From the NCBI RefSeq assembly GCF_058153355.1, contig NZ_CM177019.1: 64,000 nucleotides of DNA; one strand, written 5' to 3'. The notes below the pieces were generated by a model, which was not told the DNA's origin, ran no database searches, and worked only from the letters and a program-made list of their open reading frames with translations. Every line of letters begins with the position of its first letter. Position 1 is the stretch's first letter. Below, piece after piece: positions 1-15,905 of this stretch. The translations under genes and the position numbers were made by a program.

Positions 1-1184
1 TTGTAACCCTGTCCTAAATCCTCTTTTTTCGATTGTGACGGAAAAATTCCAAAGTTGGTTTGACTTTTATACGTCAGCTGGAAGGCCTTACCCTGTTGTG
101 TTTCCAGCGTGATATTTTCACCTTCAGATAAACGTTCTTGTAGGCGAGTAAGTGCGCTATCCAACATTTCCTGCGCACCAGCATGACCAAAGGCGGCATC
201 CTCGCATATCTGTTTAAAAATACCTGCCTTTATTTCGTATTTTACATTACCGTCATCAGTAGTCTCAGCTCTTAAACCTTCAATAAACTCTTCATAACCA
301 AAGCTCTGATGAAAGGTGATAAAACGCACTCGATTATCTTTGATAAGCTGATCATAAATCTTTTTCAACTCGCGACGTTTTTCACTCTCATCCTTACCCT
401 CCTGCAGGGAGTAAGCGATCGGATCACAAATTTGTACAGCAAGCTCAATAGTACGATATGTTTTACCTGTACCTGGCGGGCCATAGAGAATTGTGTTTTT
501 AGGCAATGGCGAACTTATAACATCATCTTCTTGCTCATTTTCTTGTAAAGCACTTTCGCTTCCAACTAAACCGATAGCATTTTTATCCTGAATTTCATAC
601 GCATAGAGATGCCAAAGTGACATATTCAGCTCAATAGGGTCGATATCATCACCCAGCGCACGATTTAGCGTTTCTTTAAGATCAACATTGCGAGCCAGCC
701 ACTCCCGTTCTCCGGAAAGACCTAGCTGGAAATGGTTGTTGCAATAATTGTAGCAACTAAAAAAATTATTAACATTCACGACACTGCTAATTTTTGATGG
801 GTATATTGCTGCAAAAGCACGATTACAAAGAGCCCTATATACCTTATTTAATACTCCGTCCGCTTTAAGTTTGATAAGACGTTCAATGACCCGATTATAA
901 TTTTCTTGTGTACACTCTTCTGCTATCTGACGGGTGAGCGTTAGAAGGTCTTTTTGTGCATTTTCAAATTCAACCAATGACATCCCACCTTGCATCAGGC
1001 TGGAGACACCATTGTCACGTTCATACCATACCTGCCGAATCGTGGCTTCAGAAAAGTTTGGTTTTTCGGCCTGAATCTGTTCTACAAGCTCGCGGTAGTG
1101 TTTGCCCCAAACTGAATTGTATTGATTATTTTTTTCAATTTGAGCACGAAAGAAGGGGGCTAATGCTGATGAATCCTGAACCAT
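1..1184 (-). CDS. McrB-family AAA+ GTPase (restriction-system motor subunit homolog), N-terminal ~394 codons only; the 3' end runs off the window start
   Basis: Minus-strand reading frame opens at ATG (plus coords 1182-1184) and, as translated by hand, continues without stop to position 1. Contains a Walker A motif GPPGTGKT (around 459-482) and, further on, FHQSFGYEEFIEG, which resembles the McrB signature FHQSYSYEDFIQG. It is absent from the supplied ORF track, presumably because it is incomplete. Confidence 0.6.
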   Translation of the reverse strand, partial: MVQDSSALAPFFRAQIEKNNQYNSVWGKHYRELVEQIQAEKPNFSEATIRQVWYERDNGVSSLMQGGMSLVEFENAQKDLLTLTRQIAEECTQENYNRVIERLIKLKADGVLNKVYRALCNRAFAAIYPSKISSVVNVNNFFSCYNYCNNHFQLGLSGEREWLARNVDLKETLNRALGDDIDPIELNMSLWHLYAYEIQDKNAIGLVGSESALQENEQEDDVISSPLPKNTILYGPPGTGKTYRTIELAVQICDPIAYSLQEGKDESEKRRELKKIYDQLIKDNRVRFITFHQSFGYEEFIEGLRAETTDDGNVKYEIKAGIFKQICEDAAFGHAGAQEMLDSALTRLQERLSEGENITLETQQGKAFQLTYKSQTNFGIFPSQSKKEDLGQGY

Positions 1185-1542: not shown

Positions 1543-2376
1543 TCATTTTGCTGATAACGCTGACGGATAGTGCTTCGCCACAATGTCATTCATCTTATCC
1601 ACCAGATCCAGTCGCTTGAATGTGATGTGTCCACTGCCTTTCTGGTAATAGCGGATGACAAATAAATCGTCATTAAATACCTGCTCATGCGGGTGAGCAC
1701 TAACGAAGTCCATAAACCGAATCGCAACATCATGCCGGTTATCGGGAATGGCCTTCCCATCCAGCAGATAGAACATCCGTTCCAGATCGGCAAGCTGATC
1801 TCGCCGCCAGCCCCAGTGCAGGCTGTAACCCCATCGGTCATGCTTCACCAGATTGTTAACGATAATCTTCTTACCGAAATAACAGGGATTATTGGTTTTG
1901 TAATCCCAGCTCAATCCCTTAAATACATTGATAATCCCACGTTCGAAAACGTCATGCTTATTGTGGTGGAGTTGTTCAAAGGTACTCAGGATGTTGGCTT
2001 CGCTAATCGCCGGGAGATCGCCCTCCTCCAGGTTCTTTGCCCACTGACTGCGGGCTTCGGCATCCATCAGAGTCAACATCCCGGACTTCAGCATGAGATC
2101 GCGCCAGATGCTGCGATCGATATTGCGGGTGATCGCCGACATCGCTTTGTCGGTTGGTTGCATCAGCCAGCAGTCAAAGGCATATCCATTACGCATTCCC
2201 CAGGTTCCAGCCACATCACCGCCAATACTGGATGTCAGACTGGAGATATCATCCAGTTTTTGGATTAGCGTCGCTATCAGCTTCAGTGCGCTATCACGTC
2301 CTGTGACGATACGCTCAATATTGGTCGAGCGAATTATCTCGTTGTGATCGGTTAAGACTTCAGCTTCTGTTTGCAT
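1543..2376 (-). CDS. Hypothetical protein, 277 aa, function unknown; lies between the McrB-like gene and the divergently transcribed hsdM
   Basis: Longest ORF in the interval and same strand as the McrB-like gene 358 bp downstream. I see no nucleotide-binding or methyltransferase motif. The plus-strand ORFs overlapping it (1687..2268, 2093..2347) look like antisense shadows. Confidence 0.45.
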   Translation of the reverse strand: MQTEAEVLTDHNEIIRSTNIERIVTGRDSALKLIATLIQKLDDISSLTSSIGGDVAGTWGMRNGYAFDCWLMQPTDKAMSAITRNIDRSIWRDLMLKSGMLTLMDAEARSQWAKNLEEGDLPAISEANILSTFEQLHHNKHDVFERGIINVFKGLSWDYKTNNPCYFGKKIIVNNLVKHDRWGYSLHWGWRRDQLADLERMFYLLDGKAIPDNRHDVAIRFMDFVSAHPHEQVFNDDLFVIRYYQKGSGHITFKRLDLVDKMNDIVAKHYPSALSAK

Positions 2377-4239: not shown

Positions 4240-5390
4240 ACGAGTTGAGTTATCTGGAAAAATTACTGGATGGGGTTGAGGTTGAGTGGTTGCCATTGGC
4301 TAAAGTTTGTCGTTTAATAAACGGGAGAGCATATAAGCAAGAAGAACTGCTTTCCAAAGGCAAATATCCAGTATTAAGAGTCGGTAATTTTTTTACTAAC
4401 CAAAATTGGTATTACTCAGATTTAGAATTAGATCAAGACAAGTATTGTGATAACGGTGACCTTTTATATGCTTGGTCCGCATCATTTGGTCCAAGAATTT
4501 GGCATGGGGGTAAATCTATTTACCATTATCACATATGGAAAGTGGTTCCAGATTCGAATCTTATTTGTAAACAGTTTCTATATTACTTGTTACAATGGGA
4601 TACTAAAGCACTTAAAGATGCACATAGCACTGGTTCTACTATGATGCACATCAGCAAAACTACAATTGAAAAAAGGTTAGTCCCCATCCCCTGCCCGGAT
4701 AATCCGGAAAAATCCCTTGCCATCCAGTCTGAAATCGTTCGGATTCTGGATAAATTTACTGCACTTACCGCTGAGCTTACCGCTGAGCTTAATATGCGAA
4801 AAAAACAGTACAACTACTATCTCGACCAGTTACTGAATCTTGAGGGTAGGGAAAATACTCGAGAAATGAGGATAGGTGATATTTATGATTTTCAGTATGG
4901 AACAGGCAATACAATTCCTAAATCTGGAGGGCAATATCCTGTTTATGGTAGCAACGGGATTGTAGGCTCCCATGACAAATATAACAGCGAAGACTCACCT
5001 GTTATTGGCCATATAGGTGCTTACGCAGGAATCGTTAACTGGGGCCAGGGTAAGCATTTTGTTACATACAACGGAGTTATTTGTAGGCACAAATCGAAGG
5101 AAGTTCTTCAAAAATACGCCTACTATTTATTACTTTTACAAGATTTCGGTTCAAAATCTAATAGTGCATCACAGCCTTTTGTTTCATATAACATATTAAA
5201 TGCTCCTATTGTTTTGGTTCCCCCTTTACAAGAGCAAGCTCGTATCGTCGCAATACTCGATAAATTCGACACCCTGACCAACTCCATCACCGAAGGTCTT
5301 CCGCGTGAAATCGAGTTGCGCCAGAAACAATACGAGTACTATCGTGATTTACTGTTCAGTTTCCCAAAACCTGAAACTCTCAGTAATTAA
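4236..5390 (+). CDS. hsdS: Type I restriction-modification system specificity subunit S (type IC-like, two target-recognition domains)
   Basis: 384-aa ORF translationally coupled to hsdM. It has two AT-rich variable regions separated by a conserved central region containing TAEL repeats, plus a conserved C-terminal region ([30 protein letters not shown]), as in EcoR124-type HsdS. Confidence 0.85.
4767..4790 (+). repeat. Two tandem copies of a 12-bp repeat ACCGCTGAGCTT (encoding TAEL-TAEL) in the central conserved region of hsdS
   Basis: Direct reading: accgctgagctt accgctgagctt at 4767-4790. In type IC HsdS, the copy number of this repeat is known to set the spacer length of the recognition sequence. 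Confidence 0.85.
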
Positions 5391-5511
5391 TTGACCATTA
5401 TTACAGACCGGACCATCTTAATATCCGGTCAGTATATAGACTATTTTTTACACGCCGGAAGTCACCATTAACCCCCTTCCGGCCCTTGCCAGACGGCACA
5501 AAGGATGCGCT

Positions 5512-8500
5512 ATGACTCATCAAACACACACCATTGCTGAATCCAATAACTTTATCGTTCTTGATAAGTACATCAAAGCTGAGCAAACAGGCGACAGCTA
5601 TCAGAGCGAATCGGACCTGGAACGTGAACTGATTCAGGACCTGCAAAATCAGGGCTATGAATTTATACCCGTAAAATCACAGTCAGCGATGCTGGCCAAC
5701 GTTCGGGAACAGCTTCAGAGCCTCAATGGTGTGGTGTTTAATGACAGCGAGTGGCGGCGTTTCACGGAGCAGTATCTGGATAACCCGAGCGATGGCATTC
5801 TGGATAAGACCCGTAAAATCCATATCGACTATATTTGCGACTTTATTTTTGATGACGAGCGACTTGAGAACATCTATTTGATAGATAAAAAGAATCTCAT
5901 GCGCAATAAGGTGCAGATTATCCAGCAGTTTGAACAGGCGGGTTCCCACTCTAACCGCTATGATGTCACGATCCTGATTAATGGCTTACCACTGGTACAA
6001 ATCGAACTGAAAAAGCGCGGCGTGGCGATTCGTGAGGCTTTCAACCAGATACATCGTTACAGTAAAGAGAGTTTTAACAGCGAAAATTCCCTGTTTAAGT
6101 ATCTGCAACTGTTTGTCATTTCTAACGGCACCGATACCCGTTACTTTGCCAACACCACAAAGCGCGATAAAAATAGTTTTGACTTCACCATGAACTGGGC
6201 GAAATCAGACAACACGCTGATTAAAGACCTCAAAGATTTTACCGCTACCTTTTTCCAGAAACATACTCTGCTTAATGTTCTGGTGAACTACAGCGTGTTC
6301 GATATTAGCCAGACGCTACTGGTGATGCGACCGTACCAGATTGCCGCCACCGAACGAATCTTATGGAAAATCAACAGCTCCTATAAAGCGAAAAACTGGT
6401 CTACCCCCGAAAGCGGTGGCTTTATCTGGCACACCACCGGTTCCGGTAAAACCCTGACCAGCTTTAAAGCTGCGCGTCTGGCAACAGAGCTGGACTTTAT
6501 TGATAAAGTCTTCTTCGTGGTCGACAGAAAAGACCTCGATTACCAGACCATGAAGGAATATCAGCGTTTTTCGCCAGATAGTGTTAACGGTTCGGAAAAT
6601 ACCGCAGGCCTGAAACGAAATCTGGATAAGGACGATAACAAAATTATCGTCACCACTATTCAGAAACTTAATAACCTGATGAAAGCAGAAAGCGACCTGC
6701 CTGTATACAATCAGCAAGTGGTGTTTATATTTGATGAATGTCACCGCAGCCAGTTTGGAGAAGCGCAGAAAAACCTGAAGAAGAAATTCAAACGCTATTA
6801 TCAGTTTGGTTTTACCGGCACACCTATTTTCCCGGAAAACGCTTTAGGCTCAGAAACGACCGCCAGCGTATTTGGTCGTGAATTGCATTCGTATGTGATT
6901 ACCGATGCGATTCGTGATGAAAAAGTGCTCAAATTCAAGGTGGACTATAACGATGTGCGGCCACAATTTAAGTCTTTAGAGACAGAAACCGACGAGAAAA
7001 AACTGAGTGCGGCTGAAAATCAGCAGGCGTTTCTTCATCCCATGCGTATACAGGAAATTACGCAATATATTCTGAATAACTTCCGCCAGAAGACCCACCG
7101 TACTTTCCCAGGTTCCAAAGGCTTTAATGCCATGCTGGCAGTGAGTAGCGTGGATGCCGCGAAAGCCTATTACGCGACGTTTAAACGGTTACAAGAGGAA
7201 GCCGCTAATAAATCTGCTACCTATAAACCACTACGTGTTGCGACAATCTTCTCCTTTGCCGCTAATGAAGAACAAAATGCCATTGGTGAAATTTCCGATG
7301 AAACTTTTGATACCAGCGCAATGGACAGCAGTGCTAAAGAGTTTCTCGACGCTGCAATTCGTGAATATAACAGCTATTTTAAAACTAACTTCAGTACCGA
7401 CAGTAACGGTTTTCAGAACTACTATCGTGATTTAGCCCAACGGGTTAAAAATCAGGATATCGATCTGTTAATTGTCGTTGGGATGTTTTTAACCGGCTTC
7501 GACGCTCCAACATTGAACACGCTATTCGTCGATAAAAACTTGCGTTTTCACGGCCTGATGCAGGCATTTTCCCGCACCAACCGCATTTATGACGCCACTA
7601 AAACCTTCGGTAACATCGTCACTTTTCGGGATCTGGAACGCTCAACCATTGATGCCATAACGCTGTTTGGTGATAAAAATACCAAAAATGTGGTGTTAGA
7701 AAAGAGTTATGCCGAGTATATGGAAGGCTTTACAGATGCTGCCACTGGTGAAGCTAAACGCGGCTTTATGGCAGTAGTTTCAGAACTGGAACAACGGTTC
7801 CCTGACCCTGCCAGTATTGAAAGTGAAAAAGAGAAGAAAGACTTCGTTAAACTGTTTGGTGAATACCTGCGCGCCGAGAACATCCTGCAAAACTATGATG
7901 AATTTGCCACGCTGAAAGCCCTGCAACAAATCGATCTTAGCGATCCTGTTGCGGTAGAAAAATTCAAAGCAGAACATTATGTGGATGATGAAAAGTTTGC
8001 TGAATTACAAACGATTCGTCTCCCTGCTGAACGTAAGATTCAGGATTATCGTTCGGCCTATAACGATATTCGTGACTGGCAGCGCCGCGAGAAAGAAGCT
8101 GACAAAAAAGAAAAATCAACCACTGACTGGGATGACGTGGTTTTTGAGGTCGATTTGCTGAAGTCTCAGGAAATAAACCTGGATTATATCCTTGGACTGA
8201 TTTTCGAACACAACAGACAAAACAAAGGTAAGGGCGAAATGACCGAAGAGGTCAAACGCTTAATTCGTTCGAGCCTTGGGAACCGTGCCAAAGAAGGCCT
8301 GGTGGTCGATTTTATTCAACAAACGAACCTGGATGATTTGCCGGATAAAGCCAGTATCATTGACGCGTTCTTTATCTTTGCTCAACGCGAACAGCAACGT
8401 GAAGCAGAAGCGTTGATTAAAGAAGAAAATCTCAATGAAGAAGCAGCGAAACGCTATATTCGCACGTCTTTAAAACGCGAATACGCCACCGAAAATGGCA

Positions 8501-8628
8501 CAGAATTAAACGAGACGTTACCAAAACTTAGTCCGTTAAACCCGCAATATAAAACGAAAAAACAGACGGTTTTCCAGAAGATCGTCGCGTTTATTGAGAA
8601 GTTTAAAGGTGTAGGCGGGCAGATATAA
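5512..8628 (+). CDS. hsdR: Type I restriction enzyme endonuclease/helicase subunit R (type IC-like, 1038 aa)
   Basis: 1038-aa ORF with SF2 helicase motifs (Walker A TTGSGKT, DEAH-like [10 protein letters not shown]). The length matches type IC HsdR such as EcoR124I as I recall it. A 121-bp gap after hsdS leaves room for its own promoter. Confidence 0.9.
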
Positions 8629-8852
8629 TGTATTAATCCGAACCTGATCTGGCAGATAGCTGTCAGATCAGGACTGAGCTAATACAAATTAATATCGAAC
8701 CGAAAATACCAACGCCTGTACCAACATTTTTCGTTTGCGATGGGTTGAAATTGGTTGGCTCTGAGAGAGTTAAAATAGCGAGAAAGATAGGTAACTAATG
8801 GATCCCAGACACAAAAAAAGCCGCCCTTGAGCGACTCGATTTGCATACGATG

Positions 8853-8937
8853 TGGTGCCGAAGGCCGGACTCGAACCGGCACGTATTTCTACGGTTGATT
8901 TTGAATCAACTGCGTCTACCGATTTCGCCACTTCGGC
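8853..8937 (-). tRNA. leuX: tRNA-Leu (anticodon CAA)
   Basis: The minus-strand sequence GCCGAAGTGGCGAAATCGGTAGACGCAGTTGATTCAAAATCAACCGTAGAAATACGTGCCGGTTCGAGTCCGGCCTTCGGCACCA has acceptor stem, D-loop, anticodon loop UUCAAAA (anticodon CAA), the long variable arm of a class II tRNA, T-loop GGTTCGAGTCC and 3' CCA. Confidence 0.92.
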
Positions 8938-9132
8938 ACTGAAGAGGTATGCGGAAAACGTTGTGGATTATACCTGTCGCACGCCACCATGCAAGCGCCA
9001 GCTTGCACCCACTTTGCTAAGTGCTGAAATTTTCAGCATTGCATACCGCGATGTGTAACCTTTGTCACACTCCAGGCACCCCGCCCTACCATGCTCTACA
9101 CTTCCCAGACAACACCAGAGAAGGACAAAAAT

Positions 9133-10218
9133 ATGTCGATGATAAAAAGCTATGCCGCAAAAGAGGCTGGCGGCAAACTGGAAGTTTATGAGTACGATCC
9201 CGGTGAACTGAAGCCACAAGATGTCGAAGTGCAGGTGGATTACTGCGGGATCTGCCATTCCGATCTGTCGATGATCGACAACGAATGGGGATTTTCACAG
9301 TATCCGCTGGTTGCCGGGCATGAGGTGATTGGGCGCGTGGTGGCGCTCGGGAGCGCCGCGCAGGATAAAGGTTTGCAGGTCGGTCAGCGTGTCGGGATTG
9401 GCTGGACGGCGCGAAGCTGTGGTCACTGCGATGCCTGTATTAGCGGTAATCAGATCAACTGCGAGCAAGGTGCGGTGCCAACAATTATGAATCGCGGCGG
9501 TTTTGCCGAGAAGTTGCGTGCAGACTGGCAATGGGTGATTCCACTGCCGGAAAATATCGATATCGATTCCGCCGGGCCGCTGCTGTGTGGTGGTATCACG
9601 GTCTTCAAACCACTGTTAATGCACCATATCACTGCCACCAGCCGCGTTGGGGTAATTGGTATTGGCGGGCTGGGGCATATCGCTATAAAACTTCTGCACG
9701 CAATGGGATGCGAGGTAACGGCCTTTAGTTCTAATCCGGCGAAAGAGCAGGAAGTGCTGGCGATGGGTGCCGATAAAGTAGTGAATAGCCGCGATCCGCA
9801 GGCACTGAAAGCACTGGCGGGGCAGTTTGATCTCATTATCAACACCGTCAACGTCAGCCTCGACTGGCAGCCTTATTTTGAGGCGCTGACGTATGGCGGT
9901 AATTTCCATACAGTCGGCGCGGTCCTCACGCCGCTGTCTGTTCCGGCCTTTACGTTAATTGCGGGCGACCGCAGCGTCTCTGGTTCAGCAACAGGTACAC
10001 CTTATGAGCTGCGTAAGCTGATGCACTTTGCCGCCCGCAGCAAGGTTGCGCCGACTACCGAACTGTTCCCTATGTCGAAAATTAACGACGCCATTCAGCA
10101 TGTACGCGATGGTAAAGCGCGCTACCGAGTGGTCCTGAAAGCCGACTTCTGCTCCCTTTGCCGGGTGCCTGTCGCCCGGCTTTTAAATCTCTTTGGAAGG
10201 CGTCTCGCAATCTGCTGA
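9133..10218 (+). CDS. ahr: NADPH-dependent aldehyde reductase Ahr (zinc-dependent alcohol dehydrogenase family); the ORF runs about 22 codons past the expected C-terminus
   Basis: ORF starting [14 protein letters not shown] with the Zn-ADH motif GHEVIG and the NAD(P)-binding GxGxxG (GVIGIGGLG). The expected end ...[10 protein letters not shown] is followed here by [22 protein letters not shown] before the stop. Confidence 0.8.
10160..10184 (+). terminator. Putative rho-independent terminator hairpin (GCCGGG..CCCGGC then TTTT) at the ahr 3' end
   Basis: Inverted repeat gccggg/cccggc followed by a T run, seen directly. It lies inside the extended ahr reading frame. Confidence 0.45.

Positions 10219-14390: not shown

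Positions 14391-15905
<1,515 letters not shown>

Follow-up and report, generated by a model that had tools for sequence, protein, structure and literature searches.

The 224-bp spacer between the stop codon of hsdR and the 3' end of leuX is most probably a composite scar at the leuX integration hotspot, and not a single island/core junction. It occupies positions 8629-8852 of the window, i.e., the whole 64,000-nucleotide stretch of contig NZ_CM177019.1 (assembly GCF_058153355.1) that was analyzed. Its anatomy, its homologies, and its attR junctions can be read directly from the compared sequences. Followed from leuX outward, the spacer would consist of (a) the Rho-independent terminator of leuX (8852-8806), (b) the decayed attL P' arm left by a tyrosine-integrase element of IntB type (KpLE2/P4 family; 8805 to ~8693), (c) a seam arising from deletion or replacement (~8692-8671), and (d) the stem-loop at the 3' end of the convergent hsdR mRNA, a piece that would have arrived with the type IC hsd cassette (8670-8629). 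Both the kind of element and the hotspot are well known, the decay scar is an ordinary one, and its anatomy is unsurprising to a specialist. The features are as follows, with the basis of each assignment in parentheses.

5512-8628, plus strand: hsdR, restriction subunit of a type IC-like (EcoR124/prr-type) type I R-M system (1038-aa ORF, Pfam domains).
8629-8670, plus strand: hsdR 3' flank with hairpin (sequence, fold, homology to plasmid p101.3_p2, invariance in 7 E. coli copies).
8643-8655 and 8660-8672, plus strand: core stem of the hsdR hairpin, with its loop at 8656-8659 (fold).
8629-8635 and 8680-8686, plus strand: outer, weaker stem of the hsdR hairpin, extending past the 8670 limit of the flank (fold).
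8671-8692, no strand: seam where the hsd cassette meets the relic arm (homology to either partner not demonstrable).
8693-8805, minus strand: probable orphan P' arm of an IntB-type (P4-family) attL, formerly the region upstream of int (leuX-intB spacer alignments).
8707-8713 and 8719-8725, no strand: two direct repeats TACCAAC, putative Int arm-type sites (sole such doublet in the 64-kb window).
8806-8852, minus strand: leuX intrinsic terminator (hairpin 8837..8818, U-run from the A residues at 8813-8819).
8853-8937, minus strand: leuX, tRNA-Leu(CAA) (ARAGORN, Rfam).

The piece adjoining the tRNA contains the A/T run gacacaaaaaaagccgccc, which had been placed at 8806-8824 and proposed as a possible leuX terminator; the run is real but lies 2 bp to the right, at 8808-8826, and the proposal is borne out by a minus-strand hairpin and T-run directly past the tRNA 3' end. 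In a consensus terminator scan, the hairpin is G+C-rich, with 8 pairs, a 4-nt loop, and a U7 run, and starts 15 nt past the tRNA 3' end; its fold amounts to -16.7 kcal/mol (z -3.65). At least five different stem sequences are found in other strains and genera with the pairing, the 4-nt loop, and the T7-8 run all kept, and among E. coli copies a pair of substitutions replaces two G-U pairs by C-G and U-A. The hairpin and its U-run are found in every arm-bearing sequence; the terminator always accompanies the arm, and both are displaced together when another element integrates. For instance, where leuX is occupied by a P4-like element, the terminator has moved to the far side of that element. 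Terminator variants A and B are not strictly tied to the arm type, and the locus is therefore a mosaic; 8806-8852 could be native or element-derived, no unoccupied leuX site having been seen. A scan of 8500-9100 against Rfam 15 returned only the tRNA and one chance-level match (E = 0.88).

Beyond the terminator, and as part of the composite reading taken as a whole, ~8693-8805 very likely represents an orphan P' arm, left from an old attL of IntB type after deletion of the integrase. Window positions 8693-8852 align with the leuX-intB spacer of K-12; the arm itself also aligns with that of UID2309220009 and of 29 other species, and 8693-8805 agrees with the IntB-type consensus at 78% of positions (88/113). 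In a scan of one genome per species, a 30-nt block, CGAACCGRAAATACCAWCNNCTGTACCAAC, was found in 30 Enterobacterales species, from Photorhabdus and Dickeya to Enterobacter and Kluyvera; leuX adjoins this block wherever the tRNA falls inside the fetched locus, and at 21 loci an IntB homologue (76-94% amino acid identity) starts 32 nt past it. The integrases at leuX carry Arm-DNA-bind_3, Phage_int_M, and Phage_integrase domains. In the window, the start codon of the cognate int would be expected at ~8661-8663, inside the hsdR hairpin, and no such gene is present ~32 nt past the arm block.

In an alignment of four integrase subtypes, the paired direct repeats at the same position of the arm differ by subtype: TACCATC/TACCAAC for IntB, two copies of TACCCGCA for 1585m1, two copies of TATACTCA for MS1170 and S. 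Infantis, and two copies of TGCCCCCAAT for the P4-like integrases. Because of their position, their repetition, and their covariation with the integrase subtype, the TACCAWC repeats are taken as putative arm-type binding sites, and Int would have bound the TACCAAC doublet at 8707-8725. The IntB island of UID2309220009, whose Int is 99% identical to K-12 IntB, presents both ends of such an element: its attL runs leuX - terminator - TACCATC/TACCAAC - intB, and its attR runs TACCAAC twice - degenerate core - window-type 224 bp - hsdR, the latter doublet belonging to the P arm on the opposite side of the core, as Int arm-type sites would be expected to behave.

The window copy of the arm is decayed. 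The IntB-linked arms are 92% identical to one another, and the window copy is ~75% identical to them, below any within-group pair; of the 103 near-invariant columns between 8693 and 8852, it deviates at 17; and the inverted third site GTTGGTA, which forms a palindrome with TACCAAC in live arms, is lost. A series of such decay can be assembled from an intact int (K-12, MS1170) through a truncated int (1585m1, MRY15, S. Infantis) and the arm alone (the window, SCPM-O-B-8794) to the terminator alone (FDAARGOS_1298). Among the species representatives, E. coli SCPM-O-B-8794 carries the only other window-type copy of the arm, which is also without int. Since no element joining a window-type arm to an integrase was found, we infer the cognate integrase from a relative whose arm is 75% identical. 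In intact elements, the arm holds the putative TACCAWC Int sites together with the int promoter and ends 32 nt before the int start; in the window lineage, int would have been deleted, the arm would have drifted to ~75% identity, and the third inverted site would have been lost.

The same alignments could be read in the opposite direction, with 8693-8852 as native chromosome 3' of leuX (the true B' flank), ~160 bp of which was captured by an IntB-type attP, so that the island boundary would really lie at ~8692. This account is unlikely. In its favor, the block always adjoins leuX or a leuX 3' fragment, the window-type block occurs in 318 E. coli genomes with little variation, and copying could formally have run either way, no empty leuX site having been seen. 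However, the P arm of the IntB island, which lies across the core and has no host homology, carries a TACCAAC doublet too; the repeats vary with the integrase subtype and the scaffold stays constant; and the 32-nt spacing to the int start is fixed across 21 loci. Moreover, positions that never vary in the presence of int are lost from the window copy, and partial int remnants occupy the same place in other strains. The orphan arm is the preferred reading.

Three observations on arms of this type may be recorded separately. In SCPM-O-B-8794 (locus L022, 11128-11410), the arm is followed by 19 unrelated nucleotides and the last 76 codons of a truncated DUF4942 gene, which share 78% amino acid identity with window 1543-2376, with no hsd operon between. 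In Serratia sp. PL17 (L041), where the IntB homologue is intact, a tandem duplication of 12 nt in the arm upstream of it has added a third direct TACCA site (TACCATCATCTGTACCAACATCTGTACCAAC). At its outer end (8695-8702), the window arm repeats 8 nt, TCGAACCG, of the leuX T-arm (8871-8878); in K-12-type arms the repeat extends to 9 nt, TCGAACCG(G). By chance, ~0.05-0.2 such matches would be expected. The TCGAACCG(G) block is kept in three integrase subtypes with differing arm repeats; it could serve as a core-like site or be no more than the -10 region of int, which reads GATAAT on the opposite strand.

Between the arm and the hsd cassette, ~8671-8692 is an internal seam of 12-22 nt that joins two generations of acquired DNA. 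Plasmid homology stops at 8670, K-12 BLAST homology begins at 8693, and identity to the IntB-type consensus across 8650-8692 is 17/43; TACAA at 8683-8687 may already belong to the arm. The window and SCPM-O-B-8794 both lose homology near TATCGAACCG, and a shared breakpoint acting as a recombination hot spot was considered and rejected. The coincidence is weak, because the orphan arms of Pectobacterium, Mixta, RIT693, and an Enterobacteriaceae MAG break elsewhere and because the window may retain the TACAA just mentioned.

On the other side of the seam, the hsdR reading frame of 1038 amino acids ends at 8628 on the plus strand, convergent with leuX; its product contains HSDR_N, SWI2_SNF2/ResIII, T1R_D3-like, and EcoR124_C domains, and the HsdR annotation is carried by ET201, E2348/69, and MB50. 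The perfect inverted repeat that had been pointed out behind the gene, cctgatctg (8643-8651), 12 nt, and cagatcagg (8664-8672), is present exactly as described. As plus-strand RNA, it forms 13 contiguous pairs, one of them G-U, around an AUAG loop; the 62 nt of 8629-8690 fold to -27.8 kcal/mol (z = -6.4), and 0 of 200 shuffles did as well. According to Markov simulations, ~0.015 such inverted repeats are expected per 224 bp, and 20 were found in the 64-kb window. The sequence after the stem, ACTGAGCTAATAC, is without a T-run, and the hairpin is absent from the terminator scan; lacking a U-tract, it is therefore named a 3' stem-loop and not an intrinsic terminator. It is probably the stem-loop of the mRNA 3' end, and transcripts would terminate here as they would at the leuX hairpin.

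By its homologies, the inverted repeat appears to belong to the hsdR cassette and to be separate from the attachment relic. The window flank recurs behind the hsdR gene of plasmid p101.3_p2 as far as 8670, apart from an indel of 19 nt in the region of the loop; only this one plasmid lineage has the window hairpin, most plasmid hsdR alleles diverging exactly at the stop codon; and the flank is invariant among 7 E. coli copies. A quite improbable alternative is that the repeat at 8643-8672 is a site at the DNA level and not an RNA hairpin of hsdR, e.g., a recombination or att-like site, an operator bound by a protein dimer, or one end of a small mobile element by which the hsd cassette was brought in. 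Such a site would suit a perfect 9-bp palindromic pair with symmetric GATC, located ~10-20 bp from the seam between cassette and arm, as well as the missing U-tract of a canonical terminator and the lack of any plus-strand terminator in the scan. Yet the hairpin follows the stop codon directly, and the pTO60_2 hsdR allele has a different hairpin at the same place; plus-strand RNA pairs better (G-U) than the minus strand, which has an A-C mismatch; and repeat lists show no matching repeat at the other end of the hsd genes. A dispersed repeat was likewise rejected, as the sequence occurs at no more than two places per genome, every time at the leuX locus. As an observation in its own right, two GATC (Dam) sites lie symmetrically in the hairpin arms, at 8646-8649 and 8666-8669.

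With both hairpins and the arm in view, the possibility that the spacer is featureless intergenic DNA, in which an inverted repeat and an A-run arose by chance, retains next to no probability. The small size of the features speaks for it, and nothing more; it is refuted by the shuffle z-scores of the hsdR hairpin (-6.4) and of the terminator (-3.65), by a terminator architecture kept with compensatory stems in many genera, and by a 30-nt arm block kept in 30 species.

The original prediction further held that the true island boundary, as an attachment-site remnant, must lie within these 224 bp. When homology to window 8400-9200 was compared across 5426 complete E. coli genomes, it stopped at three nested points: at 8693 in K-12-like strains, in which intB comes next; at ~8796-8806 in a second group of genomes; and at exactly 8853, the tRNA end, in a third group with P4-like or other elements. 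The whole 224 bp is present in 318 of the 5426 genomes and is directly joined to leuX in 203 of these 318; the copy of EPEC E2348/69 is 100% identical. In the remainder, an insertion separates leuX from the 224-bp block: in MB50 it is a P4-like satellite prophage, in UID2309220009 an IntB island of 32 kb, and in E2348/69 an element of 15 kb whose integrase is distal. Junctions of the same kinds occur in three IMG/VR contigs (L046-L048). At six attR junctions, the last 20-31 bp of leuX precede the 224-bp block, either as TGGTG-CGAAGGCCGGACTC... or as a perfect 31-mer, and at these junctions of current elements the 224 bp behaves as outside flank.

Because copies of the leuX 3' end precede the block at every attR junction, the attachment core is placed inside the tRNA. 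Judged from these junctions, the core used by current P4-like, IntB-type, and E2348/69-type elements is the leuX 3' end, from 8853 to ~8872/8883, and the island boundary thus moves out of the 224 bp. A relic of an attachment site does exist there in the form of the orphan P' arm, but it is neither an att core nor a direct repeat of the tRNA end; the sole similarity to leuX within 8629-8852 is the 8-nt TCGAACCG at 8695-8702. Island homology continuing up to the tRNA, which the original prediction had named as evidence against itself, is in effect half borne out: homology to the IntB-linked attL reaches the tRNA, and no demonstrably native chromosome lies between element-homologous DNA and the tRNA. 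Present-day integration takes place in the last 20-31 bp of the tRNA gene, and each incoming element separates leuX from the 224 bp and from the hsd defence island.

The original prediction had also suggested looking at the distal island end for a direct repeat of the leuX 3' terminus. With up to 3 mismatches allowed, the window contains none; the island of this genome ends beyond the left window edge. Similarly, none was found on the way to nanS/fim in ET201 and E2348/69, nor within the 20 kb nearest nanS in the K-12 island of NZ_CP064679.1, which was used for the distal end in place of NZ_CP010442.1 (K-12), where F tra genes lie 27-47 kb beyond leuX. Two 16-mer matches to the leuX 3' end with 3 mismatches (18154 and 20812) lie on the core side, are at chance level, and were discarded. 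A search of a phage collection with the spacer returned only tRNA-Leu genes and two mis-filed Salmonella contigs, with no homology to the P4 arm.

As a side observation, a degenerate copy of the leuX 3' end with the same 1-nt deletion (TGGTG-CGAAGGCCGG) recurs at attR- or attP-like junctions in E. coli and nine other genera: in L001 (~6454-6475), in the IMG/VR contigs L046 and L047, and in nine of the arm loci L016-L045 (e.g., L019, L020, L021, L023, L025, L030, L034, L038, and L039). This suggests that the attP core of the elements may be an imperfect version of the leuX 3' end and that crossover may leave the intact copy with the tRNA.

The absence of a recombinase, as originally noted, is upheld: none of four leuX-site integrases of other strains matched any part of the window by tblastn at E<=1e-3, and matches in 8400-8900 were mere noise (E>0.1). 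An integrase remnant was sought within 8629-8692 and anywhere else in the window, and none was found.

The cargo beyond the spacer is a defence island. Window 1-9300 matches the E2348/69 order mcrB - DUF4942 - hsdM - hsdS - hsdR, and in complete genomes the arrangement continues via McrC, a phosphorothioate-dependent nuclease, and an HNH nuclease to nanS-nanM-nanC-fimB; the cargo thus comprises HNH, the PT-dependent nuclease, McrBC, DUF4942, and hsdMSR, reaching nanS. According to PMC10121019 and PMC12707154, leuX is E. coli defence hotspot #37, 68% of whose occupied cases are without a detectable mobile element, and the mode of mobilisation there is called unclear. Without an integrase or a distal repeat, the present island is therefore fixed in place; its turnover would require homologous recombination or trans-acting help.

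Several further observations concern this cargo and its genome. The window begins inside mcrB (1-1184, minus strand), a gene that runs off the window end and is hence missing from the ORF list. The target-recognition regions of hsdS (window 4290-5216) are unrelated to those of E2348/69 and ET201, and hsdM and hsdR are 93-98% identical; such divergence is the usual specificity swapping of type I systems. The hsd allele of UID2309220009 (L011, 1-388) has the prrC anticodon nuclease between hsdS and hsdR, to be compared with window 5390-5512, and the window locus is therefore a prr-type (type IC) system without prrC. For pepA (window 14394-15905), the best identity among the 5426 complete E. coli genomes is 98.8%, most lying at 95-99%, and the lineage of the window seems not to be closely represented among them. 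In K-12 (L014, 12118-12323), a fragment of the phosphorothioate-dependent restriction endonuclease, intact in E2348/69, lies beside nanS; KpLE2 therefore appears to stand in front of, and partly to replace, an older defence island of the window type.

With an integrase supplied in trans from a second island or a satellite, the orphan arm might still be usable as an attL-like site for an IntB-type enzyme, which is very improbable. This idea draws on the two consensus TACCAAC sites beside an intact leuX core, and TCGAACCG(G) at 8695-8702 could then be a secondary crossover point; it is unlikely because conserved positions have been lost. If true, a trans-acting integrase could excise, swap, or capture the integrase-less defence island, and such exchange would account for the as yet unexplained cargo turnover at hotspot #37. 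On the preferred reading of a decayed scar, the window arm is presumably non-functional now.

The anatomy of one anchor of the busiest E. coli defence hotspot is hereby settled, with the present boundary used by integrases inside the tRNA and a fossil arm, probably of IntB type, between the tRNA and the cargo. It supports a simple history of integrase-less leuX islands, the order of events in which we infer: integrase-mediated arrival, loss of int in situ, and the stacking of new elements in front. In addition, the 30-nt CGAACCGRAAATACCAWCNNCTGTACCAAC may serve as an annotation marker for IntB-type attL arms across Enterobacterales.

The terminator has the same G+C-rich stem, 4-nt loop, U7 run, and compensatory variation as other Rho-independent terminators of tRNA genes, and nothing about it is unusual. 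The EcoprrI and EcoR124-type (type IC) hsd loci share the hsdM-hsdS-hsdR order and the EcoR124_C domain in HsdR, whereas the window locus is without prrC and has an hsdS-hsdR gap of 121 bp; this likeness concerns the neighbour and not the 224 bp itself. Hotspot #37 (Hochhauser et al. 2023, PMC10121019; EcoSal Plus review, PMC12707154) is the same locus as the window, whose cargo (type IC R-M, McrBC, and other nucleases) falls in the majority class without a detectable mobile element. These papers cover gene content and, in their accessible text, do not describe an orphan arm by the tRNA; the review (PMC12707154) has an integrase at the tRNA anchor, whereas the anchor in the window is without one.

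For the arrangement of the attachment site, the KplE1 (CPS-53) attL at argW provides an experimentally mapped example, in which the order tRNA 3' end - P' sites - int promoter - int was established for IntS and the arm-type P' sites of IntS, along with TorI sites, overlap the intS promoter (PMC2951348). This layout is that proposed for the intact relatives of the window relic; the integrase and the tRNA are different, and the KplE1 sites are mapped, whereas the window sites are putative and their copy is orphaned. The satellite phage P4, with its Int/attP, also targets leuX, and the leuX-site integrases have the P4-type domain set; P4-like integrases proper, however, are 58% identical to IntB and have their own repeats, TGCCCCC. 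Compared with the K-12 KpLE2 attL (leuX - intB), the window is without the integrase gene, the convergent hsdR 3' end standing in place of int; its arm is ~75% identical, its third inverted repeat is destroyed, and it has no attR partner. At the same time, the KpLE2 attL and its Enterobacterales homologues have the same target tRNA and the same position right after the tRNA 3' end, and KpLE2 and the window share a common scaffold of terminator, TTGAGAGAGTTAA block, paired TACCAWC repeats, and TATCGAACCG block.
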